DNA of 55,225 bases, filler included, from Dirinaria sp. TL-2023a (taxonomy: Eukaryota): assembly GCA_051941275.1 (NCBI GenBank). It is 5 parts of 5 records of this genome, joined end to end, with 100 filler letters (N's around TTAATTAATTAA, not from the genome) between each part and the next. Parts side by side here need not be neighbours in the genome. Positions count along the whole stretch, not along the records: positions 44,271 to 55,225 come from JAVEBF010000889.1; 4 more parts are not named here. One strand, written 5' to 3'. The position numbers and the translations under genes are program-made. Position 1 is the first letter of the stretch, and the number at the start of each line of letters is the position of its first letter. Under the pieces are notes generated by a model. That model did no database searches and was not told the origin of the DNA. It was given only the letters and a program-made list of their open reading frames with translations. Shown here in pieces: positions 736 through 49,543 of this stretch.

Positions 736-3700
736 TTAAATCGAATGCCCATCACACTCCTCATTGCTATCCTCCCATCGCCTGACACGCTCCCTGACCC
801 TCCAGCACTCGCCATCCCTCTCAACATCCCGGTTCGGCTTCACGCTGGCATCAACAACGAGATCCGTGCCCCCGTCCAGGCTAACCACCACCTTCACCCT
901 CTTGATCCTCTGCTCCCGATCCCTCCTCTGCTGGCTGTTCCTCCTTGACCTCCTCATCCCATACTGTGAATTCTGCAATGACTGGTACGCAGAAGTTCCG
1001 CTGAGTACGGAGGCAGATTCCGAAGGCGTGGGCGATTGTGGGCGGGAGTGCGCCAGAGATCCGGCGCGGTAGCGATCGCGGAGGGACATGGATGAAGAGT
1101 GTACTCGGTGGTGGTCTGCAAGCACACTGTACTTTCTTGACAGGGGACTTGGCTGGTGATGGGATGGTGGTGGCGTCCATTGAATGGGATCAGCGTTCGA
1201 GACTTCCGTTGTGGCCCGCGCTGGCGAAGGTCTGAGGGAGGTGTGAGAGCGAGCTGTCGAAAGAAGCGGACGCTGAGCCGAGTGCGGTGTTGGGGGCGAG
1301 GGTCTCGAACCGACTTCTGGTGGGAATTCGGCGCTTGTGGAGCCTCTTTGGTCCCCCTGCTCTGTGTCTTGGGATGCCTCGCTGAGCTCCACGATTCGCT
1401 TCCTACCGAGGTCACTTACGCTTGCATTTGAAGGTCGTAGAAGTCTCATAAGCGTCTCATTTGCCTCGCTTCTTCGTGCAGGATCTATAGGTGTATATTC
1501 TAACGGTTCGGTAGTCGTCTGGTTTGCTGGATATGTGGCATGCTGTTCTGATCCACCAGGCCACATGTATCGAGGGGATTCCTGAAGATACGGGTCGTTA
1601 TTCGATTCCGCCGCTTCTGTAGGCAGGTCGATCGGGGTCAGCTTAGCAGACTCGAAGGCATCCGTAGGCCTTTGACCTATTGATGGCAAGCTTTGAGGGG
1701 ATCCATAAAGAGTCTTATCACTAATCTGCTCTGCATCTGCTGCTAACGGAGAGGGCTCAGTCGAGGTTGGCGTACCAGATTCCAAGACGTCCACAGGCTT
1801 TAATTCCGTGGGCGGTACACCTTGAGACGCTTCTTGAAGAGAATTGTCATTGAACTTTTCTGCTCGTCCTGAAGACAGCTGGATGGAAGTTGGCGTAATA
1901 GGATGGAAGACATCTGCAGGCTCTTGACCCACGGATGATAACTGTTGAGGAGATTTCTGAACAGAATCGTCGTTAGTTTGCTCTGCAGCTTCTGGAAGCG
2001 ATCCAACTGGGGCCAGCGTAGCAGGATGGAAGGCATGCGCAGATCCTGGTTTTATGGACGGTACTTGTTCATGGAATTCCCGAAGAGACTCGTGGCTAGT
2101 CTGCTCTGCAGCTTCTGGAGGCGATCCGACTGGAGCTTGGGTAGTAGGATGGAAGGCATGCGCAGATCCTGAACCTATGGATGATACTTCTTCAGGGGAT
2201 TCCCGAAGAGACTCGTCGCTATTCTGCTCGGCTCCTTCTGGAGGCAATTCAACGGAGGACCGTGTAGCAAGCTGGAACTCGTCTGCAGGTCGCAACTGCG
2301 TAGATGGTGTATCTTGGCGAGCTCTCTGATGCGACTCACCGCCGTGCCCTTCTGCTGCTTCTGCAGGCAGGTCAATTGAGGCTGGCGTAGCAGCTTGGAA
2401 AGCGTCCGCAGACCCTGGTTCCATGGTTGGATCTTCTTGAGGGGATTCTTGAAGGGACTTGTCGTCGAACTGTTCTCGTGCTTCCGTGGACTGCTTAGTC
2501 GAAGTTGGCATGGGAGGTTGGAAAACACTAGCGGGCTCTTGCGCATGATGCTGTTTCTCACGGATTTCATCAGCTGGCAACTCAGCCGGTGTAGGAGTAG
2601 CAGATCGTGAGGCCTGTTCTTCTTCCGCAAGCTCCGAGGTATTTGGTCGTCGGTCATGTAAAGCAAGCCGCCATGTGCTCAGGGTAGTCCAGACTCGGGT
2701 TAGAGGTCGAGGCACACCAACAGATGAACCTCTACTAGCCACACTACACTGTCTTGGCTTCGTATATGGTGGTGGGCCTGTCAAGAGCTGGCTCGTTGCC
2801 CTGCTCCCGTCCTCAAGCTCTCTTGATGATGTTGATTCCGTTTCTTCCTTTTCACAGGCCTTGAGCTGGCTTGTTGCCTGGCTCCCGTCCTCAGGCTCTC
2901 CAGATGGTGTTGATTCGGTTTCTTCCTTTTCACTGGCCTTCAGTGGAGCTTTCAAGGCCTTGGCAGAACGATCTGGGCTGCGGCGGTCAGACAAACGCTC
3001 GACAGCCAGAGACTGCATCCTAGTACGATGAGCAGCGTCGCTCACAGAGCGCCATGGAAGATTTGCTGTCATAGCCCGGGGCCTGGCTTCAAACTTCGCT
3101 AGCGGCTCAACTTCGCCATGTTGCTGGGCGTCAGAGGTGCTCTCCAGTGTATTGTGAGGTACTTGGCGCCGGCTACGTGTTCTCTTCAATCGAAGTTCAT
3201 CGTCAATGGGACTGGCGTCACTGCTCATTCGAGAGTGGTCGAGATTGGGTAAGAACCTAGCAGCGTATCGAGAGTATTCTGTCTGACTGGACAGCGCCCC
3301 TGCCGTTGGTGGCTGCTCTTCTGACATCGATCGCCTTTTCGATTGCTTTGGCGCTGGGAAAGGATATGAGCGTCCTTCATCCTCTGTAGCCCATGCAGTG
3401 GATGCCTCATCTTGTCCCTGCGACACGTCAAGATTCTCATCGAGTCCTTCTGCAATGCTCTTTCTATGTACCACAACTGGTAGCAATGAGGTGTGCTCGG
3501 GCTGGGTTTCACTCCAGAATGCACTGTCGTCGATGGGACGTTGATTAATGTTGACCGGTTGTCGGGCGGGAGAGAGAGGTTGCGGCGATTTTATCTCAGA
3601 TCCTGCTGATATTCTCCTCAAATTGCTGTAGTCCCGGTATCTCTTTCTACCACCATGCGGTGAGCCACTATACTGGGCGTGGAGCTCTAGCATGCTATGG

Positions 3701-4119
3701 CTTCGTCGGTCGATGGGGCTTTGAATGGGTTCGGCCATTGTACTACTATGCGATTGCTGACTACTTATGTTTCGTTGCCATTTCTTATAGTTCACCGGCT
3801 GCTTCGGCTTAACTCGCTCATTGTCCAAGCTGGGCGTCTTTGGAGCCGTCGAACGGTGATCAGCTTCTTCGTGTGACCGTCTACTCGGCGCAGCGCGACT
3901 TCGCTTTTCCAAAGATGGTTTTCGACGAGATACATGGGGAAACCGAGAGGACTTAGATACATTTGTTTGCGTAAATTTACCTTCAATCGCCCGAACACGG
4001 GCCTGCACGAACCCTTGTTCGACGATCGGGCCTTCTCCTGTACCATACGGTGAGTGCTTTCTGATGATTGATGGTTTCCGGCTGGTGGAGGCTGAACGGT
4101 GTGGTGTCATTGTCGCCAT
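736..4119 (-). CDS. Large low-complexity Ser/Pro/Glu-rich hypothetical protein with internal tandem repeats
   Basis: Uninterrupted ORF of about 3.4 kb. Likely start is the ATG at 4119 (MATMTPH), not the TTG at 4389. Mostly disordered composition, with a short hydrophobic C-terminal segment (IKRVKVVVSLDGGTDLVVDASV). Confidence 0.75.
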   Translation of the reverse strand: MATMTPHRSASTSRKPSIIRKHSPYGTGEGPIVEQGFVQARVRAIEGKFTQTNVSKSSRFPHVSRRKPSLEKRSRAAPSRRSHEEADHRSTAPKTPSLDNERVKPKQPVNYKKWQRNISSQQSHSSTMAEPIQSPIDRRSHSMLELHAQYSGSPHGGRKRYRDYSNLRRISAGSEIKSPQPLSPARQPVNINQRPIDDSAFWSETQPEHTSLLPVVVHRKSIAEGLDENLDVSQGQDEASTAWATEDEGRSYPFPAPKQSKRRSMSEEQPPTAGALSSQTEYSRYAARFLPNLDHSRMSSDASPIDDELRLKRTRSRRQVPHNTLESTSDAQQHGEVEPLAKFEARPRAMTANLPWRSVSDAAHRTRMQSLAVERLSDRRSPDRSAKALKAPLKASEKEETESTPSGEPEDGSQATSQLKACEKEETESTSSRELEDGSRATSQLLTGPPPYTKPRQCSVASRGSSVGVPRPLTRVWTTLSTWRLALHDRRPNTSELAEEEQASRSATPTPAELPADEIREKQHHAQEPASVFQPPMPTSTKQSTEAREQFDDKSLQESPQEDPTMEPGSADAFQAATPASIDLPAEAAEGHGGESHQRARQDTPSTQLRPADEFQLATRSSVELPPEGAEQNSDESLRESPEEVSSIGSGSAHAFHPTTQAPVGSPPEAAEQTSHESLREFHEQVPSIKPGSAHAFHPATLAPVGSLPEAAEQTNDDSVQKSPQQLSSVGQEPADVFHPITPTSIQLSSGRAEKFNDNSLQEASQGVPPTELKPVDVLESGTPTSTEPSPLAADAEQISDKTLYGSPQSLPSIGQRPTDAFESAKLTPIDLPTEAAESNNDPYLQESPRYMWPGGSEQHATYPANQTTTEPLEYTPIDPARRSEANETLMRLLRPSNASVSDLGRKRIVELSEASQDTEQGDQRGSTSAEFPPEVGSRPSPPTPHSAQRPLLSTARSHTSLRPSPARATTEVSNADPIQWTPPPSHHQPSPLSRKYSVLADHHRVHSSSMSLRDRYRAGSLAHSRPQSPTPSESASVLSGTSAYQSLQNSQYGMRRSRRNSQQRRDREQRIKRVKVVVSLDGGTDLVVDASVKPNRDVERDGECWRVRERVRRWEDSNEECDGHSI
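1550..2532 (-). repeat. Coding tandem repeat, about 8 degenerate copies of a 123-bp (41-aa) unit
   Basis: GGATGGAAGGCATGCGCAGATCCTG occurs at 2024 and 2147 (period 123). Protein units resemble AHAFHPxTxAPVGSxPEAAEQTxxxSLxExxxxxxSIxPGS. Confidence 0.85.
2785..2940 (-). repeat. Coding tandem duplication, 2 x 78 bp (26 aa)
   Basis: KASEKEETESTPSGEPEDGSQATSQL followed by KACEKEETESTSSRELEDGSRATSQL. GAGCTGG anchors at 2785 and 2863. Confidence 0.9.
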
Positions 4120-4487
4120 GAGATATTGAGTAACAGATGCTTTGTATGCTTTGGATACGGGTAATCTAAATGGTCTCCTTCTCATTAAGAATGCATGTAA
4201 GGAGTGACAAGTCGACCCAAAGCAATGGCACGAAGTGACTGAGGAAAGGTATAAAGTAGGTTTGAGTCTTGAGACTGATGTGCCGGAGTCATAGGAGATA
4301 TCGATGCCAGTAGAACGGAAGGAGCGGCCCAAACCGGACAGAGTGCTTGATAGGAAAAATCGTAACAGTTGGTAGGTACCACCCACCAAGCACTACCTTA
4401 TGAAAGACAGGTCTACAACAAGATGGGAGATAAATTCAAGACTACTTTAATCGAGATATGAAATGCTGGGACACTATCCTACATGAA

Positions 4488-16573: not shown

Positions 16574-17106
16574 CCTGGCTGTGGTGAGGAGATTGTTGCA
16601 GTGGACGTCGAGAAGTGGATCGAAGCAGTCTCGCAGTGTATCAGTAGCGTAACAAAAGTGTGGGAGCGGATAGTGAAGGCTAGGACAAACAAGGTAATAG
16701 AAGCGAATGTGCTAAAATGCAAGAGGATTAGCTTGGCATCGAGCTCATGATGCCGGATGTCGCGCCTCCAACTGAGCTGTCCGTCAGTTACTTGTCAAGC
16801 ACCACGAAATGGTCTTGTCGCGTCAGGAGTCTTTCGTCCACAAGTCGTCGCAGCATCTCCAAGACGATCATTCTTGAAGGAATCAGCATGTCGCGGTCAT
16901 CGTGGGAAGTCTCAGGATCACCTCAAACTCATCCGCTCTCAGTATCTTTATCATATTCACTGAAGTCCTCAGAGCTTCCTCGACCTCGGCATGCTTAGTC
17001 GATTGTCACTGGCGCTCACTGAAACCTTGTCAGCCGTCTGATGCCGACTGCCAATCCAGTTACCTCAACTCTTTGACCGAAACTCGGTTCTCGACATGCG
17101 TTAGTC

Positions 17107-19068
17107 ATGTCTTACGGGTACAATAAGTACTCACCCTACTTCAATCAGCAGCGCGAACAAAATGGCACAAATCAATTTTCATATCAGACTCCCAGCACCG
17201 GTCAAGGTCCGTCCTACACCGCGCCAGCTAGCAATTACAACGGACAGCAACGATCGCCGCCCTCGAACGATCTTTCTCAATACGCGCCACATAGCTCGAG
17301 ATATCCAGGGACCGGGACAGAGGCCTACCATGACGCAAGAAGCAACTCGTACAACGGCATGGCTGAGCATACAACTGGCTTGAACGGTCTGGCATATGCA
17401 TCAAGTCTCAGATCCGATCAGTCAAGTAACGAACAAGAGCGAGCATCACTGCAAAAGATCGCGGATTTCAACCGATCTCAGAGCAGATCATCGCCGAGAT
17501 ATTATGGCCAAAAAACTCATCAGCGATCTGAAAGCAGTATCAGAGAACCTGAAAGTCATAATGCAAAGGTCAATCGTACTGTCAGCCCATATCAACCATA
17601 TGTATCTCAAGCTTCTGTCGCCGATTACAGAACTCATCATGCACCGCAACCAAGCGTCAGCGGAGTTCAACCGACAAGTCAACACGTTCCCCAACCTACA
17701 AGACAGGCAGCATATTATGAATCATCGGCCGTCCATCAAAGTCAGAAGCAAAATACCGCGCAGAATGAACCTCGGCCACCGGAGGTAGATAAGAGAGGAT
17801 CAGTGAGTCAAGCTTTGAATGATCAGCCTGCGCGACCGAAGCTGTCTGCGATGCCGCAGCAAAGCTCATTCAATAGCACTCGAGGCAATGACACTCGAAT
17901 TCATAATCAACACCAACCATCCAACGACAAGCCAGAAGACGAGCGAATGCACCGCCTCAATCCGATCAATAATGCTATCAATGACCATGGTCACGGGCAA
18001 CACTCTCAGTCGACGCCTCCTTCAAATCCAACAACCATAGACCCCAGCAAGGTCTTCAATCTGTATGAATACCAGCGAAGGCAAAATGCGGCCGTGGCAG
18101 AGGCTAAAGTAGTGCGTGAAAAAGCTGCCGCGGAGGCTGAACAGCGCAGGAAATCAGAGCAAATGACGGCCTCAACGAAGTTGGCGCAGGATGAAGGCTT
18201 CAGAAAGGAGCGCATGGAAGTCGAGATGAAACTTATGTTGGAGAAAATGCGCGAGTACAAAAGCAAAGACCCGGCATTGTTCTCACAGATCTGGGAGCAG
18301 GTGAAGAAGGCTCAGCCTCCGACAGCACTTCCAGCAAGTAAAGATGTTGCTGTTGCCTCTCCACGCCCGGCAAGTACTTCGACTGCGCAACAGAGCTCTG
18401 CCGCGTCAATACCGATGAATCCGTCAACTACTCCAGTCCCACAAGCTTCGTCTATTCCAGCTTCATCTATTCCAGTTTCGTCTATTCCAGCTTCGTCTAC
18501 TCCAGCTTTGTCTATTCCAGCTTCCTCTATTCCAGCTTCCTCTGTTCCAGCTTCCTCTGTTCCAGTCGCCCAAGATCGAGGAAAACCTTCCGCTCCACGG
18601 AGAAAGAGAAAACAGGTCAAGTCGTCCACAGAGCCTTCCGTTCGAGGTACTTCAGAACAAAGCTCTGTTCAAGGTCCTCCTGAAGGCTATGTTCGGGCTG
18701 GGGAGGATCAAAATTCTATCTCAAGCCAGCAAACTGAAAAAGCAAGGACATCCGAGAACATGACAGACGCAGGGTCTCGGCGGAATGAGAGCACAGCTTC
18801 ACAGTCAACATCAGCTCCGCCTCGTTCATCTGGTCAAACGCATTGGCCAGAAGAGGACAAATGGGCACTTGCCATTGCAGCGCGAGAGACCTTACTGTCG
18901 CACCCTGCAAACCGGAATAAGCAGATCCGATCGTATGACATCCGATGTCTTCTCGATCAGGGCCCAAGTTATAACGAGCTGTGCTCGATGCTTGAGCAGA
19001 AAGGGTTTGTGGTTGAAAGAACGCCTTTTGCGCAACAGTTGCTCGACTCTGTCCCACGTTTGAAGCAA

Positions 19069-19099
<31 letters not shown>

Positions 19100-21320
19100 A
19101 AGATCCTCCATCAGTACCGACCAATTCTATACCTCAAACAAGCGGGAAGTCGAATTCAACGTCAAGTCGCAAGAAAATCACTCATCCAACGAAATCTATT
19201 CAGAAGCCGAAGGCACCGCAAATCACCGCCACTAATAATACGCTTCCGAATGGGACATCTGCGCCAGCAGCACCAATGTATGGCATGCTGACTCGAAAGC
19301 CGCAACATCAGCAACCACAGCTACAGTTAAGTGCACAGCAGACAAAGCCGAAGTTCGTAGATGCACCTAAGACAAATAAATGGATTGTGCGACTTACGGG
19401 TGACCCATTTCGTAGCCAGACTCAGAAGGATTATCAAACACCTCAGTCGAACACTTCAGAATTCAGTCATGCTCACCCACACATCGATGTCAGCATTCAA
19501 CCAACAAAGCAGCAAATGGCTAAAAAACGTAGCTTTGCAGAGATAGTAGATCTCACACTCGATATGAACTCGGATGAGGAGCGCGAACGCGCACGTGCTA
19601 AGCAACTGTGTCAACATGAGCAATCACGATCAAAGGAGCTCGAGTCACCGCAAGTCAAGACAATCAAGTCTAGAGTATCAACTGCGCAGAGTGATGAGGA
19701 AGACGTTGAAGTGGCGCGCATTAAAAGTCGATTTCGACCTGAACAAGAGCAACTTCGTAAAGCCGATGTTGTGAAGCCGCTGAATCCAGCAGATGCTTTA
19801 CAAAGAACCTCTTACGATCCAAGAACAATCGCTGACGATATTCTTATTGCGGTAGGAAAGCATCCTTATATGAAACCGTTGAACTGGCATCTGATGGGCT
19901 TGCGTACAATCTTTGAGAAAGTAGATAACACATCTGATCTTAGTACACTCGATTGGGAACTGCTAGATCCTGGTGGTCCTCCAATGCCAGAAAGTCCTGA
20001 GATTGTCGACTTGGATAAACCCGAGCAGAAACCACCTGCTCAGATCGAAGATATAGAGCCCGCTGTTATCGTTCCTGGCAGTAACCACAAAAGTGCTGCT
20101 GTGAAGAGTTCAGACAATTCACAGGTCCATCCTAATTCGAGCCCGTCAAATACCCGCCGTTTCACGGGGTTGAGTATCGATGCGTTACCACGGCAACAGC
20201 ATAAATCATCAGATTCAGGTGACCTAAAAGGCGACATTTCTCTGCTTGTAGCTGGGGAAAGCGGTGGTGATAATTCGTCTGAGAGATATCGAACTGATCT
20301 TTCTCTCCCAATTACCCCAAACACTTCTACTAGTCGTCAAGTGTCCAGGGTAAATGGTAGTGCTGAACAAGTGCAGCGTAGAGGAGCAGGAAGACCCCGA
20401 GGATCAAAGAACAAGCAGCCTCGGAAATCGCGAGGCTCGACTTCATCTAATAATTTAACTCCAACTCAGCCATCAACGCCAATGACGTCGAACTCCGCGT
20501 TTCGAAAGCCTTCATCAACACCATTAAGGTCCAGCGGTTTGAAAAATGAGATATCACGGTCGTCAGGCTTCGCTGTCGTGATTCCATCCCCAGAAAAGGA
20601 GAATCGCTCAGGTGAAAGCAAATTTACCCATTCAAAAAGGCGCAAAAATCAAGTCTATAAATGCCGATGGAAAGGTTGCTCGGGCGAACTTCACAACCTC
20701 GATACCCTTCGAAAGCATGTGTACGGTCACATCCACGACTTCGACGAGGAAGAGAATCGTACCTTGTATTGCCTATGGGAGGGATGTGAGACCAGTGATG
20801 GACGATCTCCTTTGCCGTTCAGGAGTGCAACCTCCTGGCATCGACATATGGACGGGCGCCATCTCGACCCTTTTGCCTGGGAACTTGGGGACGGTCCTTC
20901 CCCGCATCCATCAGGTAAATGATAGATAATCTAAATGCCGAGCTTTTACGGGACTGAGATCTGATTCTCATAGATCCCGACTTGGATTTCCTGAGCGATT
21001 CTCAACACCGTCAAGTCACCCCTCAACCAGGTCCACACAGTCGGCGCCCCGATCCGCTTATCGTACCGCCTGCGAAAGCGGCGGACATGGGAGATCGCAG
21101 AACGGCCATCAGGGCTTACCATGCGGCTCACGGTAATGCCAGCGACGAACAGAAAGCGCAGACGATCTTCGACAGTCATCTTGAGAGGAGGCGGGTATTG
21201 GGGGCAGGCGTCACGAAGGGAGGCACGGCTTTCGTCAACGAGGAGAGGCGGGCTCTGCTACAGCATGATCCCTACCATTTACGACTTGTAAGTGATGAAG
21301 CCGAAGACGGTGACGAGTAG
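17107..21320 (+). CDS. Large nuclear protein with an AT-hook and two C2H2-like zinc fingers, 2 exons
   Basis: Exon 17107-20914, intron 20915-20973 (GTAAAT...TCATAG), exon 20974-21320 in frame. AT-hook GRPRGS. Fingers CRWKGC...HVYGHIH and CLWEGC...HMDGRH, followed by WELGDGP...FLSDSQHRQVTP. Confidence 0.85.
18445..18564 (+). repeat. Coding minisatellite, 8 x 15 bp encoding (ASSIP)n
   Basis: Eight consecutive GCTTCNTCTRTTCCA-like units. Confidence 0.93.
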
Positions 21321-40166: not shown

Positions 40167-41586
40167 GATGGAAGTGGTAAGATTCAGAGGGTGGTAGTCA
40201 TGGCCAAGGTAAATATACTCAAGCTCGCATGGCAGACAAGTACAAACCAATCCTTGAAGACGGGGAAGTCGTATGTCAGTTCTTTCGTGTATGATGCATC
40301 CTATACACACTGTCTCGTCGTATATATAAGATAGTCTTGATCTTGGCGAAGCCAAGCCAGCCAAGCCATCCTCCTTCTGCCATCCTCTTCTCCTTCGATA
40401 CTATCGTCATTGCACCGTTAGTAGTATTGTGTACTCGGTGTGCATCTGATTTATGGATCATAGTTTCATCTTGCAATAGAAATGCAGCACTGATCGGATC
40501 GATTTCGAATCTCAGAACGCCGAAACAGCAGGACTTACTAGTAGTCTCTTGAACCTGCAAATCCCCTCCCCCTGAGCAAACACCGCAACGGATATCCTAC
40601 TCAACGGCGAATGGATGAAACAGTGACTTACGGCTTTGTATCTTCGCCAGTCTGTATGATTGAACATGTCGACAGAGTCAGCCTTGTGGATTCGTCTCCG
40701 CCACCCGGGCTTCGGTCCCACAACAAAGTGTAGCCAAGGCATGGAGTGCCTAGGAATTGTTTCTACATCGGCAACACGTCTTGGTTGCTACAAAAGAGCC
40801 TGAGCTTCATTGTAAGATCTTGCCATACAAGCCATACCAGGCGACGAAAACGTTCTCGTCATGGCTTTGCGAAGCGACAATAGCCGATTCTTACTGCAAG
40901 CTCGGCGTTGCTATCGTCCAGGTCAAATCCTCCGATCGAAAGCCAGCCTGATTTGTTTTCTATCTCTTGCTCAATCTTCTCAAAGATTCGAATGATCCAG
41001 ATCAGTTGCTGTGGCTGTTCTTCGGCGCCTTGAGGTAAGGTATATCCGTGCTACTCCAGTGAGATCATGGTCTTGTACAGACCTTTAGGTACGCCGCGCC
41101 AGATAGTGACCACATACATTTCATGCGCCTTGCACATTGAAATTTGAAGCGACCGCTTGCGAGTCTTGAAACCCCTTCTTGAAAATGCCGGTGTCGGTAG
41201 CCTAAATACTATCCTGCGAGCTACTAGCGGCCAAAACTGACACGGCTTACCCAACTGGACGGGATTCTTGTCTGCGCTGGCAAGCCTGTCCTCATCAATA
41301 AGCATAAGTAAGACTAAGATTCAGAATAGAAATCCAGACCTAGAGTAAAAGATTTAAGTGTTGAGCAGACATACAACTCCAGGAGAGTGTATTAGTGCCA
41401 TGCCTCTGAAGTGACTTATCTTCTTTTGTAATCTTCTTTTGTATAACACGAGGACCCCCATTCACTTTCTTTCCTTGTCTCTTACACCTTCAGAACCCCT
41501 CAACGCAAGCCATAGCATGATAGCACATCGTCTTTGAAACAGTCTTCCCTTTACTTGCAGCGTCTGGCTCTCGAAGCCATTACAGA

Positions 41587-43659
41587 ATGGCTCCGAGAGC
41601 CTTCCTGAACGGTCTACCCACGGTGCCGCTGAGCGAACTGGATGCACAAGAGCAACAGTGCAGCATCTGCCTCACCGCGTACGGACCACCTACCACAAGC
41701 ACCGAGAACCCGCCAGAGCAACCACGACGACTTCCCTGTTCGCACGTCTTTGGTGCCAAATGTTTAGCGACCTGGCTTCGAGACCGTAACACGTGCCCTC
41801 TGTGCCGTGTAGTGCTCTTTCCGAGGGAGCAGTCAAGCATTGGTGCATCTTTCCCTGGCTTTATCTATCCGATGCCTATAGAGACCCGAACTCGCGTCAT
41901 ACGTGCGTCGGAATACGACGCAATACGGCAGCGTGGGATAGATCTGAGCCCTTTGATGCACTACGAGTATGCCTCAAATGAGTCCCAAGGGAGAATCATC
42001 GTCACGAGGATGCGTATCATGGAAGAGCATCACCTACAACGCAACAGAGCCATTGCTGAGCGTTCGAACACCATGGATACGCGTGATATTGAACAGCAGC
42101 ATCTCGAGCGCTTCATAGCTAATGCTCAGCTTTCAGACACCATGGGTACGCATGCCATGGGAGAGCAGCATTTACAGCGCCATAGGACCACTACTGAGCG
42201 TTTAAATCGATGGCGACCCAATCTTTCAGAACAGCTCAATACCCCTGGCTCAGGAAGAGATGATTTGGATACTGGGAGTAGCGCCATTGATAGGCTTGAG
42301 CCTGGGGCTGGTGCCTCGGAAGAGAGTATGGGAGAAGCAAGCAGAAGAGATAGATCTAGGGGAAGCCCAAGGATTGAAGAGATGTTGAACTTAGCTGAAG
42401 CCGCACACCCATCTAACTCTGCACATCGACAGACATCATCACAGCCAAACTCATCCAGGACCTCAGTAACCAATGTGCCTGGAACTGACTCAGCTGAGAT
42501 CCATGAGAGAGTAAGGAATCCTTCAGCAGCAGTCAGAGCATAACTAAATTCAGAACAGACGATCTCATATGCAGTCAGCTCGAGATTGACGTTCCCTGCT
42601 CGTAATGTGCCGAGAGTGGACACGACCCAAACAGCTAGAACCGCTCGAGCATCAGCAGGAGCTAGACCGCAGAGACCGCCCTCAGCAAGTCCGTCTTCTG
42701 AAACTTCAGCAGCTGTTCGGGCAAGCTATGTGCAAACACGCTCTGCATACTCAAGAGAAAACTCTGAGGGTTCATCACGCATTTCGGAGTCCACAGAATC
42801 TCGACAAGAGCGTGCGAGCCTTGCATCTGCACGAGCAAATATTCGTCATCGTTTACTCGTTTCAGAGCTCACAGAGTCTCGACAATCACATACGAGCCGT
42901 GCACATGCACAGTCGAATCCTCGGAGTTCATCACTTATTTCAGAGTCCACAGAGTTGCGACAATCCCATACAAGCTCCACAATGTTGAGCAACCCAGCAG
43001 GCATTCATTGGAGATCTCCGTCTCAGCCAACATTCGACCCCACTAATCCACCATCACATAACCTTGATACTAGATGTCCGGCTCTGCCTAGTTCTGTATT
43101 GAATGAATGGAATCGTTCGCAAATCCAAACATCGATCTCCACCGTTTCGTCAAGCCGCCGTTCGTTTGAGCGCAATCGTCTCGACCATTCAGTTTCTCGT
43201 CTTGCTCCTGCTACCTTAGCTCAAGGAGAAGCAGAAGAAGCAACGAGTGCTGAACCAGGCTTGAGGCAGCGCTCCAGAGTAGTGACGATGGAAAACATTA
43301 CAACTAGGACCTCACATAGCCGCCATAGATCTGTTGGTAGCATTGCTCATCGTTGGAATCCTTCTACTCCCCCTCTCTCGGCAATCCGACCAAGGCGGGA
43401 AGAACAAGAGACTTCTGTCCAACCAACTTTGAGGCGGCACTTGTCACAAAGCACGGCTCAAAATGATCCGCACTTTTCTCGTTCAACTCTAAGCACTCGA
43501 TCAGAGCTCGTTGAATCGAGTTCGAGGCGACATTCCAGAGAAGTGACGAGGCAAGATGATGTTGAATCTCGCCGCGAAGTGACGAGCCGCTACGTTGGGT
43601 TTCCTCCTCTCTACCAACCTGACCCTCGATGGATGATGCCGCGTTCTCGTCGGCCATAA
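41587..43659 (+). CDS. RING-finger protein with a long disordered repeat-containing tail, interrupted by an in-frame TAA at 42541
   Basis: CSIC...LPCSHVFGAKCLATWL...TCPLCR RING. ORFs 41587-42543 and 42544-43659 are in the same frame. Internal repeats of 23 aa (about 42010-42210) and 26 aa (42781-42975). Confidence 0.75.
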
Positions 43660-44777: not shown

Positions 44778-45969
44778 GGAACTCAATAGTGGTAGAGGAA
44801 ATAGATCCAGGCTATGTTCTAGTTCCGGAGTTGGAAGTTGAGAAACAATAAGGTCAATACCTCAGCCTGCTAATCTGTAGAAGCTGCCGATAACGACATG
44901 AAAAGTCTGCGTGGCATTATCTCAGGCGATACGCCTCCTGAAGACACCGAATCAGAACCATGTTCCCGCGCTCGAAGAATACACAGGTAACCTAGTGATC
45001 ACACTCTTCCTGTAAAATCGCCCCCAACACTGTCCCTCTGACTGCGTCATCCTTTAGCTGTACAGCGTAATCCAGCCCATTTAAATTTCTCATACCTTTT
45101 TTGATTTAACGTCAGGCACACTGCTTTTGCATACCCTGATTAAGTTTCGAGATAAGCCAAACCCACTGAAGAAGAAGACAATATTCGCAATGAAGGATCT
45201 AGACGTAGTTCTCATGAGATTCTTCAATTTAAAAATCTTGGAATAGCCTGTGTTGAACTGCTCATAGCTGGAGAATAATCTCCCATGGAACAGAGGTTGC
45301 AAACATGTCCGATTGTCCGCAGATAAGAAGGCGAATTGTTGGTAAAAGTGCTTGGCTAACGTAGTAGGATGCCGCAAAAGGGGTAACGGACCACGCTTAG
45401 CTTAAAGCAAAAAAGGACAATCTGGAGTCTAGAAACTCGAATCTCATGTTCAAATCATTGTAAACAAAGAGCCATCTGGCCCACTAGGTGATTGAGTCCG
45501 CAATTCTCATTTATAGGACTCGGCTCGCTGCTACTTCGGGACGGATATCAGGACGCGGATTTTGGTCGGGACACTCACTCATATTTTCACCTATTGAAGA
45601 TACTTCGTTCATCAATACTTTCGTTTCGAACTTGATCGAAGTGAATCAAGATGAAGACCTAGGCAAATGTTGTTAATCTTGGACGGCCATGGACAATAAG
45701 ACAGAAAAGCGAAACACAAGCCGAAGGTGAACTACACATATGTCACTCAGCGTGGTCCCAAAAGTCGCGAGGTAATGCGAAGCGCGCCTGAGTTCTGTCA
45801 AGACCCACTCCAACCTCATCCATCCACAGCAACTTGTTTTTGCAGCTGATGATGTCCTGAATCTCATTGTGCGCTCTCGAACGCCTACCGAGAGTCATCA
45901 TTGACTACAGGTATGTGAAATATCTATTATCGCACATCGCGCGTCTCACTTTTCTTTAGGTCAGACAAC

Positions 45970-47316
45970 ATGGCAGAGCTGACAGGGCGCTCACCTGAAG
46001 AGCCGCGTGTCTCGACCAAACCCTCAAAGATTTATGACTTGTTCGACCTTCGGTCTAACTATCCTATTAGTGCACACATATGTCGGCTATTGGGCATCTC
46101 TGATATCATAAACCTCACCAGGACATGCAGTCAATTCTCCAATCTCTACAAGTCCTTGCTCCCCTCGCAGTGGAACGTTAACAGACGACTGGCAAGATTT
46201 GTCAAAAATATCACTGGCTTCAGGAACCAGATGGCCAAGAGTGACGCATTGATTGCTGGGAGCTTCGCTGTCCAATTCTTCAATAGGGTCTCATGGTTCA
46301 ATTCAGATCTCGATATCACTATCCGACATAATTCGGAGGAGTTTGAGCAGTATCTCTGCCGTAACGAGGGTTACAAGGTAATCAGAGCGACTGAGGGGAG
46401 GAGATACAACATGTTCTGCGTCAACAAGGTATAGTCCCTGTCATCCTCACAAGCCATGCCATGCTATCAATTCCTGTCAGCGTCATGTGAGGTGTTCCTT
46501 ATACTAATGCTGAGTTTTCAGATCCGTACCTTTATTAGACGACCGCCCAACGCCCCAAAGACTATGATCCAGCTCTGCATATCGACTGGTAACCCTGTAG
46601 AGCAAATTCTCAGAGGTTCTTACAGTACCCACGTCATCAATTTCATCAGTTGGAACAAGGCGTATGCGGTTTTTCCTCGCCCTACCTTTGTCAAGAAAAA
46701 GGGATACATGCTGCAGGAACTTAACGAGCATCTCGGCGAGCATCTTGCAAAGTACCACAAACGTGGCTGGAAGATTCAGGACAGGGTCTGGGAAGGAGAA
46801 AATCCTGTTCCTGCTCTTGAAGGTTTAAGACTCGTGGGAGATCATCATACTTGGATCATTCAACTTGATACTACGGGCATTGAGATATCTAAGATTCCGG
46901 ACTTTGTGCTTGACTATACCCAATTTCGGGTCGAAATGTCTCGAAACACTCAAAATGACTTTGTGGAAAGATCGAGTCATTTGGAACACTACCACGTCGA
47001 TACATGGAGCATACGTGGAGAGGTGCTCAGGTATGAATACTTGTGCGCTTCCCATGAGTGGTACGACTTCGTTAGGGACAGGGTACTTCGTTTGACGGAG
47101 CTGGAGCTTTTCAAGGAAAATCCATCGTTAAGGCCACACAATTTCAGGGATCTCATCCGTAATCCCTCATCGCCGGCGTGGGAAAATTTTCCCAAAACGG
47201 CGCGATGGACGTACTATGATGAGGAGATCCCAACTTGGTATTCGCAATGGCGAGCACTGGGCTATTGGAAGACATGTTGGAAGGAATTTGGACGCTCCAG
47301 CTTTGTTACTGACTAA
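45970..47316 (+). CDS. F-box protein with a nucleotidyltransferase-like (GS...DxD) domain, paralogue A, 2 coding exons
   Basis: Exons 45970-46428 and 46522-47316. F-box-like ISAHICRLLGISDIINLTRTC, then LIAGSFAVQFFNRVSWFNSDLDITI, YSTHVINFISWNKAYAVFP and KYHKRGW. Probable 5'UTR intron at 45911-45959. Confidence 0.85.
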
Positions 47317-47773
47317 GCTAATTCAAGGCCGAATTGCTGGTTACTTTCCTGTGTACGACGGGAGAAGGCTTGTTGTATAAGCCACCTGCCTGTCATAGCT
47401 GAAGATCATCCATGCTAGGTTTTCATATGCTATTCTTCTCGCTACCTGCCTTATCAATTCAATTCCAATCAAAATATCGACCTTCTCCGAAGTTCCCAAG
47501 GTATCGTTCGCTCGTGGGTGTAGAAAGCGACGAATTTCGTCCTGTGGCATTTTCACCATCGGATATGGGCAGTCCACAAATGTGCAAGCCGTGAAGAAAC
47601 ATCATTCCTCGTGAGCCAATAGTCCAAATATTATTTCGGCCAAATCATGGGGATTTTCCGGTATACATGCTCCTTCCCAGGTATCCAGAAGCAGCGAGGT
47701 GTTTTGAAGTACTAGTACAGTATGTGGTGGAGATATCAGTCACTCGATACCCATAGGGCTGATTCGAGGTACT

Positions 47774-47814
47774 CGTACCGAAGTCGTACCGAAGTTGTAC
47801 CGAAGGCGTACCGA
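47774..47814. repeat. Tandem repeat, about 4 x 11 bp (CGTACCGAAGT)
   Basis: Units start at 47774, 47785, 47796 and 47807, about 315 bp upstream of paralogue B. Confidence 0.85.
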
Positions 47815-48128
47815 TGAATATCCGAAATGCGCCTTGAGACTCTGCCAAGCCTCACCCAAAAGTTCCTGCACATGGAATTAAACCCCAAACCGAATGTTCT
47901 CAATTTATCTACACAACGCAGATTGCCTTTTCGATGCCATTGGAATCTGTGGCATACACACGCGCGATCAATCAATTACAAGATTGACTGTTACCAAAAA
48001 CTAGGATCTGACCAGACAGTCATATCAAGCGTCAATAGAGCGGTGCTTAATCCCTCAAAGCACCTCATGTTAATGGGCCTCACGAGCTCCGAAGTGTTTC
48101 GATTCAGTTCAATTATCCCTCGGCCACA

Positions 48129-49543
48129 ATGTCATCTTCAAGTAATCAGCCCGCAACGCTTTTCAAACGATCAAGATTGCACGATGATGCACCATCTGCG
48201 AAAAGGCCACGGTTTGATGAGCAAATTCAACCACCGTCGCCTACCCCAAAAACCACAGTCTTTGATGTCTTAGACCATGATGCTCGTTATACTATATTTG
48301 AAAGCATCGCTTCTCTCCTCAATATTGCTGATATTGCCAGCTTGTCAAGGACTTGTAAACAGCTTTCTTCATTCTATCAAGCTCTTCTGCCCGCGCACTG
48401 GAATGTCGATCGTCGTCTCCGTCGCTTTGTCCGAGATCCGAAAGCGCTAAGAAGTCAAATGGGAAGACATGACGCGCTGATATCGGGCAGTTTTGCGGTG
48501 CAATTTTTCGAGCGCGTGACTTGGAAGGAATCCGATTTGGATATCTTCGTCGAACAAAGGCAGGGTGCAATAGCTTTGGAGAACCATTTATGTAAGAAGG
48601 AAGATTACGACTTCGTTCGGGAGGGAAATGTCCAAGAATATCTTGATGTGAACGGGATCTTATCGGTATGTGTATCTCCGAGCTTCATTCTCTGGGTGGA
48701 CACTTACTCACATCGAGTTCAATCTAGATTCGAACACTGATTATGCAGAGGCCGGACTCGACAGAGGCAAAGGTGCAGCTCATACAAACAAAACATCAGC
48801 CGCTGCTCGAGATCCTCAGAGGTTTCTACACCACGCTTGTGGTCAACGTCATCACTTGGAATAAGGCTTATGCCCTTTTTCCGCAACCAAGCTTCGTCCA
48901 CCACAAGGCCTATATGCTCAAGCCTATCAACGACTATTTTGGCAAACTAGTTGCAAAGTATGATATGCGTGGTTGGACTTCCCAGGGTATAGTTTGGCCT
49001 GAAGATAAGGCTTCACATGGATCGATACTGGAACATCGAAGACTTGGCGATCGTTTCACGTGGACTGTACCATTCAATACGGAAGGTGTTCGTCATGCAG
49101 CGCAGCCGGACTCAGTACTTGAGTACTCAAACTTTCGTCTCCTAGAAGCCACTCATAGCCCAGTTGGCACCCTCCGAGCATCTGCGGACGAGTTTCTAAT
49201 TCCTACCAGGAACCATAACTTAGCAGGCTTCTACCGAGTAAGAGGTGGAGTTTTCAAAGCTTTGACCCTGAAATACCGTTACATCAGCGCAGATGCCGAG
49301 GGTTTCTGGTACCGCTTTGCCGGGCCGAGATTAGAAAAGCTAAGTTATATAGAACTCTACAAAACCGCATCATCAGCGCGGCCTCAGTCTCTTATGGATG
49401 ATGTGGAGAGCGATAGTCCCCTCTACGACCTGTGTAGTAAAGTGGACCGTTGTGGTATCGCAATACCCAGTTATGACCATGAGATTCCGGGTTGGTACGC
49501 GACGTGGGAGAGACAGCTCGCTTCCGAGGCCCAGAACACTTGA
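48129..49543 (+). CDS. F-box protein with a nucleotidyltransferase-like (GS...DxD) domain, paralogue B, 2 exons
   Basis: Exons 48129-48665 and 48728-49543. IFESIASLLNIADIASLSRTC, LISGSFAVQFFERVTWKESDLDIFV, FYTTLVVNVITWNKAYALFP and KYDMRGW. NLS-like AKRPR near the N-terminus. Confidence 0.85.

Follow-up and report, generated by a model that had tools for sequence, protein, structure and literature searches.

The 55,225-nt stretch of DNA from Dirinaria sp. TL-2023a analysed here (assembly GCA_051941275.1; hereafter the window, along the whole of which positions are counted) contains two intact genes on the same strand at 45970–49543. We lean towards reading these genes, gene 1 and gene 2, as old paralogues of a large fungal F-box family whose members would act as substrate receptors of Skp1–cullin–F-box (SCF) ubiquitin ligases and would be built on a degenerate nucleotidyltransferase (NTase). 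A sequence-only reading had described the locus as tandem F-box genes fused to a Pol-beta-type NTase-like domain, and had proposed a duplicating fungal family that couples SCF ubiquitination to nucleotidyl transfer or to nucleotide or RNA sensing.

Gene structure, paralogy and expression

Gene 1 lies on the plus strand and is open from the ATG at 45970. Its first exon (45970–46428, 153 aa) encodes the F-box-like helices and the N-terminal half of the NTase-like domain, and the GT at 46429 begins a 93-nt, phase-0 intron (46429–46521, GTATAG..TTTCAG) in which read-through would meet an in-frame TAG at 46432. Exon 2 (46522–47316) adds 264 aa and the stop codon (47314–47316) and encodes the remainder of the NTase-like domain and the C-terminal domain, which gives a product of 417 aa. 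Gene 2, also on the plus strand, starts 812 bp after the stop codon of gene 1. It consists of an exon for the F-box-like helices and the first NTase-like half (48129–48665, 179 aa), a 62-nt, phase-0 intron (48666–48727, GTATGT..ATCTAG) and a second exon (48728–49543, 271 aa and the stop codon at 49541–49543), and its product has 450 aa. Both introns are found at the same place, directly before the residues IRT. No third copy was detected in the window by tblastn.

The products of the two first exons were 45% identical (E 9e-45) and those of the two second exons 36% identical (E 5e-51), and the spliced proteins agreed at 163 of 406 aligned positions (∼40%); judged from these alignments, the paralogy of the two genes is far beyond chance. 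The sequence-only reading had described same-strand paralogues ∼0.8 kb apart with a common intron site before IRT, and this description holds. The motifs that it quoted (GSFAVQFF-x8-DLDI, IQL/VQL, N[FV]I[ST]WNKAYA.FP and KY..RGW) were present in both proteins, as was the spacing of 14 residues between the S of GS and the first D of DxD. It had further called the C-terminal halves strongly diverged. Since identity was 51/151 in the C-terminal part, against 78/180 in the NTase part and 34/75 in the F-box, the C-terminal parts are indeed the least conserved, yet they are homologous throughout and can be aligned end to end.

Gene 2 is expressed and spliced. RNA contigs were available from three runs (X1–X3) of one sample labelled lichen metagenome, which represents a close relative and not the source of the DNA. 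The contigs on gene 2, which also covered its first exon, were about 90–96% identical to it (∼93% overall), and in two of the three runs they joined 48664/5 to 48727/8 and left out precisely the 62-nt GT..AG intron of the gene model. The spliced product is identical, letter for letter, to the database protein P0167 (450 aa, source name "hypothetical protein"). Codon positions were counted by hand among the 40 listed differences, of 97 in all, between RNA and DNA. In the conserved parts of gene 2 (48533–48558 and 48769–49102), 13 of 19 listed differences fell at third codon positions; in the exon 2 stretch 49154–49236, 2 of 21 did so and the other 19 fell at first or second positions. This stretch, in which the relative has a 3-nt insertion at 49182 and which corresponds to a loop of variable length across the family, is a fast-changing, hypervariable loop.

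Only two short RNA contigs lay on gene 1, and no contig crossed its splice junction. That gene 1 is real is indicated by its open frames, by the 62–64% identity of its exon 2 to the relatives P0001–P0004 and by the family's 32 most conserved positions, 30 of which are kept in gene 1 and 29 in gene 2. One 165-nt contig of the close relative carries 19 letters like the early gene-1 intron (46447–46530 region) right before 46530; these could come from an allele that is unspliced or has another structure, or could be an artefact of the assembly. A GTATGT...TTTAG stretch at 45911–45959, shortly before the gene-1 ATG, resembles a short intron of a 5' untranslated region, and no RNA contig was found on it.

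Size and spread of the family

Of 192 candidates from a word-indexed search, for which gene-1 exon 2 was the query, 6 were relatives; one of them was P0005 (437 aa), a full-length protein. P0005 was searched exhaustively with phmmer against the representatives of 1.84 billion clusters; of the 1958 matches at E<=1e-3, 917 reached E<=1e-10 and 105 reached E<=1e-30, each match standing for a cluster at 50% identity. From the best 150 of the 1958 matches, 45 near-full-length relatives were aligned with P0005 (alignment A2, 46 rows). The A2 profile recovered 87 proteins among 5824 candidates. They had no precomputed Pfam domain, and they were named only hypothetical, uncharacterised or F-box domain-containing; searches of PHROGs and NCBIfam returned nothing better than E 0.013, and only unrelated or unknown families. 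The matches came from Sordariomycetes, Dothideomycetes, Lecanoromycetes, Leotiomycetes, Eurotiomycetes and three Basidiomycota, and the family spans both Ascomycota and Basidiomycota. At least four species had two different family members among these matches.

A tree was calculated with FastTree from 126 rows, namely the family proteins of 340–520 aa, four fragments and the two window proteins, with other fragments and longer proteins excluded. Gene 1 grouped with P0001–P0003 (support 100) and gene 2 with P0031 and P0162 (support 99), and the two were not sisters; the backbone of the tree was weakly supported. Judged from this topology, the duplication that separated gene 1 from gene 2 is old. 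The protein P0121 (692 aa, from another organism) is a gene model that fuses a truncated and a full family copy in tandem, and because it merges two copies, tandem copies are present outside this locus as well. The proposal of a duplicating fungal family was borne out by its size (1958 clusters), by the several species with multiple copies and by the tandem copies in P0121.

Predicted fold of the nucleotidyltransferase domain

An AlphaFold2 model was computed from A2 with P0005, which is 33–42% identical to the window proteins, as the first row. The model had a predicted local distance difference test score (pLDDT) of 86.3 and a predicted template modelling score of 0.86. It was searched with VIA-align against 48,161 chains and the best 50 rows were considered. 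Rows 1–9 were all class-II CCA-adding, A-adding or poly(A) polymerases or FAM46B, with Z 10.4–6.2 over 154–176 aligned residues: the class-II enzymes 3wfo_A (10.4), 3aql_A (10.4), 4wby_A (10.0), 3h37_A (9.9), 9kma_A (8.8) and 1miv_A (8.6), with further rows at 7.2 and 6.2, and FAM46B (TENT5B, 6jyj_A) at Z 8.0 over 176 residues. The next NTases, ANT(2''), MenT1, LnuA, Pol beta, Pol X and Cid1, followed at Z 3.5–5.3, and NTase-fold proteins made up 20 of the best 50 rows. A Foldseek search of the PDB placed 3h37_B on top (E 6.2e-4), followed by other CCA enzymes, FAM46, poly(A) polymerase and OAS1. These results support a Pol-beta core alpha/beta fold of the type seen in the heads of class-II CCA-adding and poly(A) polymerases (PF01743), which were the best structural matches of the family model. 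The Pol-beta-type domain named by the sequence-only reading is therefore upheld for the predicted fold of this homologue, through matches to such heads at Z 10.4–8.6; the Foldseek comparison that it had suggested, including CCA-adding enzymes and OAS, put CCA enzymes first and had OAS1 among the top rows.

At the level of sequence, there were two signals of this fold. Gene 1 exon 1 matched the Pfam MTPAP-like palm below threshold (E 0.035), and the second GS..DxD block of P0121 matched the ANT(2'') model PF10706 at 25.2 bits (cut-off 21). Searches of the PDB with P0005 and with the A2 profile returned nothing related (best E 0.5–0.6, unrelated proteins), and PF01743 (PolyA_pol) was not found at E<=1 in the window pieces or in the 46 relatives. 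When E. coli K-12 was searched with PF01743, only cca and pcnB were recovered. Comparison by hhalign of A2 with the single E. coli CCA sequence, and of the NTase part with a small alignment of CCA and PcnB, gave no signal (probability 0.2–0.3) with a template alignment of low diversity; the homologue search seeded with CCA had yielded only enterobacterial proteins of 88–100% identity, so that the template profile was shallow.

The F-box and the C-terminal domain

Residues 37–83 of the P0005 model matched cyclin F at Z 5.7 (root-mean-square deviation (rmsd) 1.8 Å over 45 aligned residues) and Skp1-bound Cdc4 at Z 5.2. F-box entries, mostly from Skp1 complexes, accounted for 12 of the best 50 VIA rows, with Z 3.5–5.7 and rmsd 1.8–2.5 Å. 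A three-helix F-box fold of ∼45 residues is thus present in the predicted structure of this homologue, and the matches to Skp1-bound F-boxes at Z 5.7–5.2 agree with the N-terminal F-box-like helix set that had been read from the sequence. The corresponding core is encoded at 46060–46182 in gene 1 (about aa 31–71, YPI...WNVN), where it aligns to residues 37–83 of P0005, and at 48288–48410 in gene 2 (about aa 54–94). At its start, the canonical LP is replaced by YP or YT in the window proteins. The Pfam F-box-like model matched both first exons below threshold (gene 1 E 0.12, gene 2 E 0.016). Among the 46 relatives of A2, at E<=1, the Pfam F-box model matched 13 and the F-box-like model 8, and P0132 exceeded the F-box cut-off (22 against 20.5 bits). 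Because of the VIA and Foldseek matches, together with the Pfam passes of P0121 and P0132, an architecture of F-box and Pol-beta-type NTase is supported.

The product of gene-1 exon 2 (264 aa) was modelled separately with a pLDDT of 90.6. No convincing solved relative was found for this model (Foldseek best E 0.27, VIA best Z 3.8), and it showed no match to a helical neck; as a sign of an unsolved fold, this null result is weak. The last ∼170 residues carry the best-conserved motifs of the family (RR[VI]GD, PD.VLE, LRY.Y and W.Y.D). As far as the models tell, the C-terminal part is a family-specific domain and not the helical neck and body of CCA enzymes.

Conservation of the catalytic positions

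Conservation was counted in the best 150 of the 1958 matches and P0005, aligned on the A2 profile with the window proteins included, at 102–142 residues per column; the residues given below for the family carry P0005 numbers. In the P0005 model, G112-S113 lies between the strand 109–111 and the helix 113–120, and D128-L-D130 opens the strand 129–134, after which come a helix, two strands and the strand 180–186 (KVQLIAT). This is the order of the canonical fold, with GS at the turn between strand and helix and DLD where the next strand begins; in the Pol-beta superfamily the later strand bears the third carboxylate. In gene 1 the GS-x14-DLD block (46258–46317; G97 S98 ... D113 L D115 I) corresponds in the model to the strand, turn and helix and the next strand of the NTase core, and the strand IQLC (46567–46578) has Gln169 at the place expected for the third carboxylate, as judged by aligning it by hand with PcnB and CCA of E. 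coli. The equivalents in gene 2 are found at 48486–48545 (G120 S121 ... D136 L D138 I) and 48773–48784 (VQLI, with Gln196 at the expected place).

In this hand alignment to PcnB/CCA (K-12 record), LVGGG..DFD was placed opposite LISGS..DLD, IIEVATF opposite KVQLIAT, DFTIN opposite NFISWN and RLIGN opposite RRVGD. Because it sets IIEVATF opposite KVQLIAT, a Gln would stand at the place of the class-II Glu, and from the hand alignment and the order of the strands in the model we infer that the family Gln occupies the site of the third carboxylate. RRD and EDxxR are the names of the nucleotide-selecting motifs of the class-II enzymes; no equivalents of them were seen by eye in the alignments, which were not scored.

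The glycine G112 was kept in 124 of 127 sequences, and at position 113 a serine or glycine was found in 100 of 127; G-S is present in both window proteins. D128 was acidic (D or E) in 81/127 and D130 in 106/127, and both window proteins read DLDI. Position 182 was Q in 80, R in 22, H in 9, E in 5 and K in 4 of 137 sequences, and is Gln in both window proteins. All five positions were covered in 116 relatives: 64 of these had GS and DxD without the third acid, 2 had the full triad, and in the remaining 50 the S/G residue, one DxD acid or both DxD acids were missing. Both DxD acids were present in 69 of the 116 and one or both were lost in 47. The caveat of the sequence-only reading, that a Gln at the third carboxylate could make the domain atypical or dead, was confirmed to the extent that both proteins have the Gln and the site is acidic in 5/137. 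Its suggestion of nucleotidyl transfer was not supported, with an acid at this site in 5/137 only and a full triad in 2/116. It had also named poor conservation of DxD among homologues as an observation that would refute its proposal, and this was realised in part: the first acid is often lost (81/127), the second is better kept (106/127), and 69/116 relatives have both.

By comparison, other residues were near-invariant: R100 (112/113), N205 (136/141), G247 (135/138), R275 (130/136), D279 (125/136) and D421 (102/102). Judged from these counts, selection acts chiefly on features other than the catalytic triad.

Viral look-alikes and genomic context

A Foldseek search of the P0005 model against the viral predicted structures of BFVD gave 80 matches at E<=0.001. 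The best was an uncharacterised Klosneuvirus protein (A0A1V0SIK6, E 9.6e-13, 379 columns). Giant-virus proteins named as F-box proteins (A0A1V0SK13, A0A2R8FG48 and A0A2I2L471) matched at E 1e-7 to 1e-6, and such proteins from Klosneuvirus, Cedratvirus, Orpheovirus and Catovirus aligned over 238–339 columns. The giant-virus matches cover the whole model and not the F-box alone. Further matches were Pithovirus tRNA nucleotidyltransferase/poly(A) polymerase proteins and phage PolyA-polymerase-head proteins. The likeness of the giant-virus F-box-named and uncharacterised proteins extends over their whole length, but identity is 12–20% and the viral proteins are uncharacterised too. None of 65 pattern matches in viral contigs was confirmed as a relative at sequence level. 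In a language-model protein atlas, the neighbours included Nucleocytoviricota clusters (scores 0.90 and 0.84) in which 34–35% of the members carry PF26128 (Gad2). The Pfam Gad2 model PF26128 matched none of the 46 relatives and none of the window pieces. A preprint describes Gad2 as a phage anti-Gabija protein and a predicted nucleotidyltransferase (bioRxiv 10.1101/2023.05.01.538930). Gad2 comes from bacterial viruses and has no F-box, whereas the fungal family has one. We regard the likeness to Gad2 and to giant-virus proteins as a lead only.

Elsewhere in the window the genes are of an ordinary housekeeping kind, namely those for DUF2457, for Ish1 repeats, for a mitochondrial carrier and for a RING-H2 protein, and there is no sign of a defence island around genes 1 and 2. 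The RING-H2 finger is encoded by an open frame at 41524–42543 on the same strand, 3.4 kb upstream in window coordinates (zf-RING_2, E 4e-12); it is a ubiquitin-ligase component, and its position near the F-box genes is probably coincidental. Two long open frames, at 736–4392 on the minus strand (1218 aa) and at 17077–20922 on the plus strand (1281 aa), had no Pfam family or only a faint zinc-finger match. Between genes 1 and 2, at 47773–47814 and ∼315 bp upstream of the gene-2 ATG, lies an 11-bp tandem repeat, TCGTACCGAAG, with 3.8 copies and 90% matches, which could be a promoter element or an array of transcription-factor sites.

Proposed function and alternatives

In the model that we favour, the N-terminal F-box, as its fold suggests, would dock on Skp1 and so place the protein in an SCF ubiquitin ligase. 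The predicted NTase head keeps the G-S turn and, in these two copies, DxD, but across the family it has Gln, or Arg or His, at the expected place of the third carboxylate, and it appears to lack the nucleotide-templating motifs of class II. The degenerate NTase and the ∼170-residue C-terminal domain would then form a module for the recognition of a substrate or ligand and not a polymerase. By analogy with the pseudoenzymes MiD51, NF45/NF90 and TUT4/7, the pocket may hold a nucleotide with Mg or an RNA 3' end without turnover. A more daring form of this model, which we consider improbable, is a ligand-gated SCF receptor in which a CCA/poly(A)-polymerase head became a non-catalytic pocket for a nucleotide, second messenger or RNA 3' end, coupled to the ubiquitination of a target held on the C-terminal domain; the similar design in giant viruses would then reflect host–virus conflict.

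Several points weigh against a degenerate NTase in an SCF receptor. The conservation counts are biased towards relatives of P0005, because they come from the best 150 of the 1958 matches, and the Gln was placed without a scored alignment, hhalign against CCA having given no signal. As GS and DxD are kept by both window proteins and by 66/116 relatives, and as Gln is isosteric with Glu and Glu itself is present in 5/137, residual or unusual catalysis is possible. The window F-boxes scored 12.7–15.4 bits, below the Pfam cut-offs of 20.5 (F-box) and 24.3 (F-box-like). The catalytic points could be taken to indicate an active, atypical NTase (a terminal transferase, a nucleotidylating enzyme or a synthase of nucleotide signals) that is tied to the SCF by its F-box. 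This is unlikely in our judgement, even though the intact GS and DxD are joined in its favour by a fold that is that of active class-II enzymes, by the full triad in two of the five relatives with Glu and by the existence of F-box proteins with enzymatic bodies, such as FBH1 (9xzj). The third carboxylate is absent in 132/137 sequences, one or both DxD acids are lost in 47/116, which is far below the usual conservation of catalytic residues, the hand alignment shows no equivalents of the class-II motifs that select ribose and base, and the best-conserved residues lie outside the triad. The low F-box scores, in turn, would fit N-terminal helices that are only F-box-like and cap the NTase-like domain structurally, so that the protein is not an SCF component but, for example, an RNA- or protein-binding scaffold. 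The YP or YT in place of LP and the modest VIA scores (Z 5–6 over 45 residues) point the same way. We consider this very improbable, however, as twelve independent F-box entries match at an rmsd of 1.8–2.5 Å, the Pfam F-box is found in 13/46 relatives, one of them above the cut-off, and some sources already name relatives F-box domain-containing proteins.

The size of the family and its viral look-alikes have also to be weighed as signs of a role in conflict or immunity, in which the dead pocket would switch SCF-dependent degradation on sensing a foreign RNA end, a second messenger or a nucleotide. Involvement in non-self or antiviral conflict would then be the reason for the diversification of the family, and giant viruses would carry the architecture as mimics or as its source. 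Consistent with such a sensor are the 1958 clusters, the several species with multiple copies and the tandem copies found here and merged in P0121, as well as the hypervariable loop at 49154–49236, where the 93%-identical relative differs at first, second and third codon positions and carries an insertion of 3 nt. The 80 BFVD matches at E<=0.001, with giant-virus F-box-named proteins aligned over 238–339 columns, and the Nucleocytoviricota clusters with PF26128 in 34–35% of members (scores 0.90 and 0.84) add to this. However, the neighbouring genes named above offer no defence-type context, no link to viral proteins was found at sequence level (0/65 viral pattern matches confirmed; Gad2 in 0/46), the conserved core seems to be under purifying selection, and the window copies are old paralogues that are not sisters in the tree. 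We therefore regard a role as conflict sensor as quite unlikely, and retain the reading of the two proteins as putative SCF substrate receptors on a degenerate NTase.

Comparison with known systems

The hand alignment gave the family and PcnB/CCA the same elements in the same order: a G-G/S turn followed by DxD, an h-E/Q-h-x-T strand, a [DN]F[TI]..N strand and R-x-[VI]-G. The family differs from the class-II enzymes by the Gln in place of the Glu of the strand, by an unrelated C-terminal domain in place of the helical neck and body and by the added F-box. The TENT5/FAM46 proteins have an NTase fold like that of the family (6jyj_A at Z 8.0, and several Foldseek rows) but no F-box, and they keep a full catalytic triad and are active. 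FBH1 resembles the family in that it joins an F-box to a body of catalytic fold, and its SCF entry 9xzj matched the F-box at Z 4.2, but its body is a helicase. The KDM2/FBXL10-11 demethylases are F-box proteins with a JmjC body. NTase-fold pseudoenzymes with an incomplete triad include MiD49/MiD51, the DZF domains of NF45/NF90 and the inactive N-terminal domains of TUT4/7; in these the Pol-beta fold serves for binding or scaffolding, and MiD51 binds ADP without catalysis. To our knowledge, these belong to other NTase subfamilies and none of them has an F-box. Full-text literature searches, with subscription journals and InterPro/CATH annotations outside their coverage, returned no paper on a protein with F-box and NTase fold in fungi or viruses. 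The Fbx23 paper (PMC11750091) was rejected, as it deals with a WD40 F-box protein and is unrelated. F-box receptors and NTase pseudoenzymes are both known already, and what is new here is a large, unnamed family that would join the two.

Significance

F-box proteins set what an SCF ligase degrades, and most of those in fungi have no known substrate. The present family is very large, its body is invisible to Pfam and, by its predicted fold, it would derive from the nucleotidyltransferases that act on the 3' ends of tRNA and other RNA. If the pocket still binds nucleotides or RNA ends, the family would tie protein degradation in fungi to the state of RNA or nucleotides, and would offer a way into the similar F-box proteins of giant viruses. 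A domain that is a scaffold only would make the family one more example, and an abundant one, of an enzyme fold reused for recognition.

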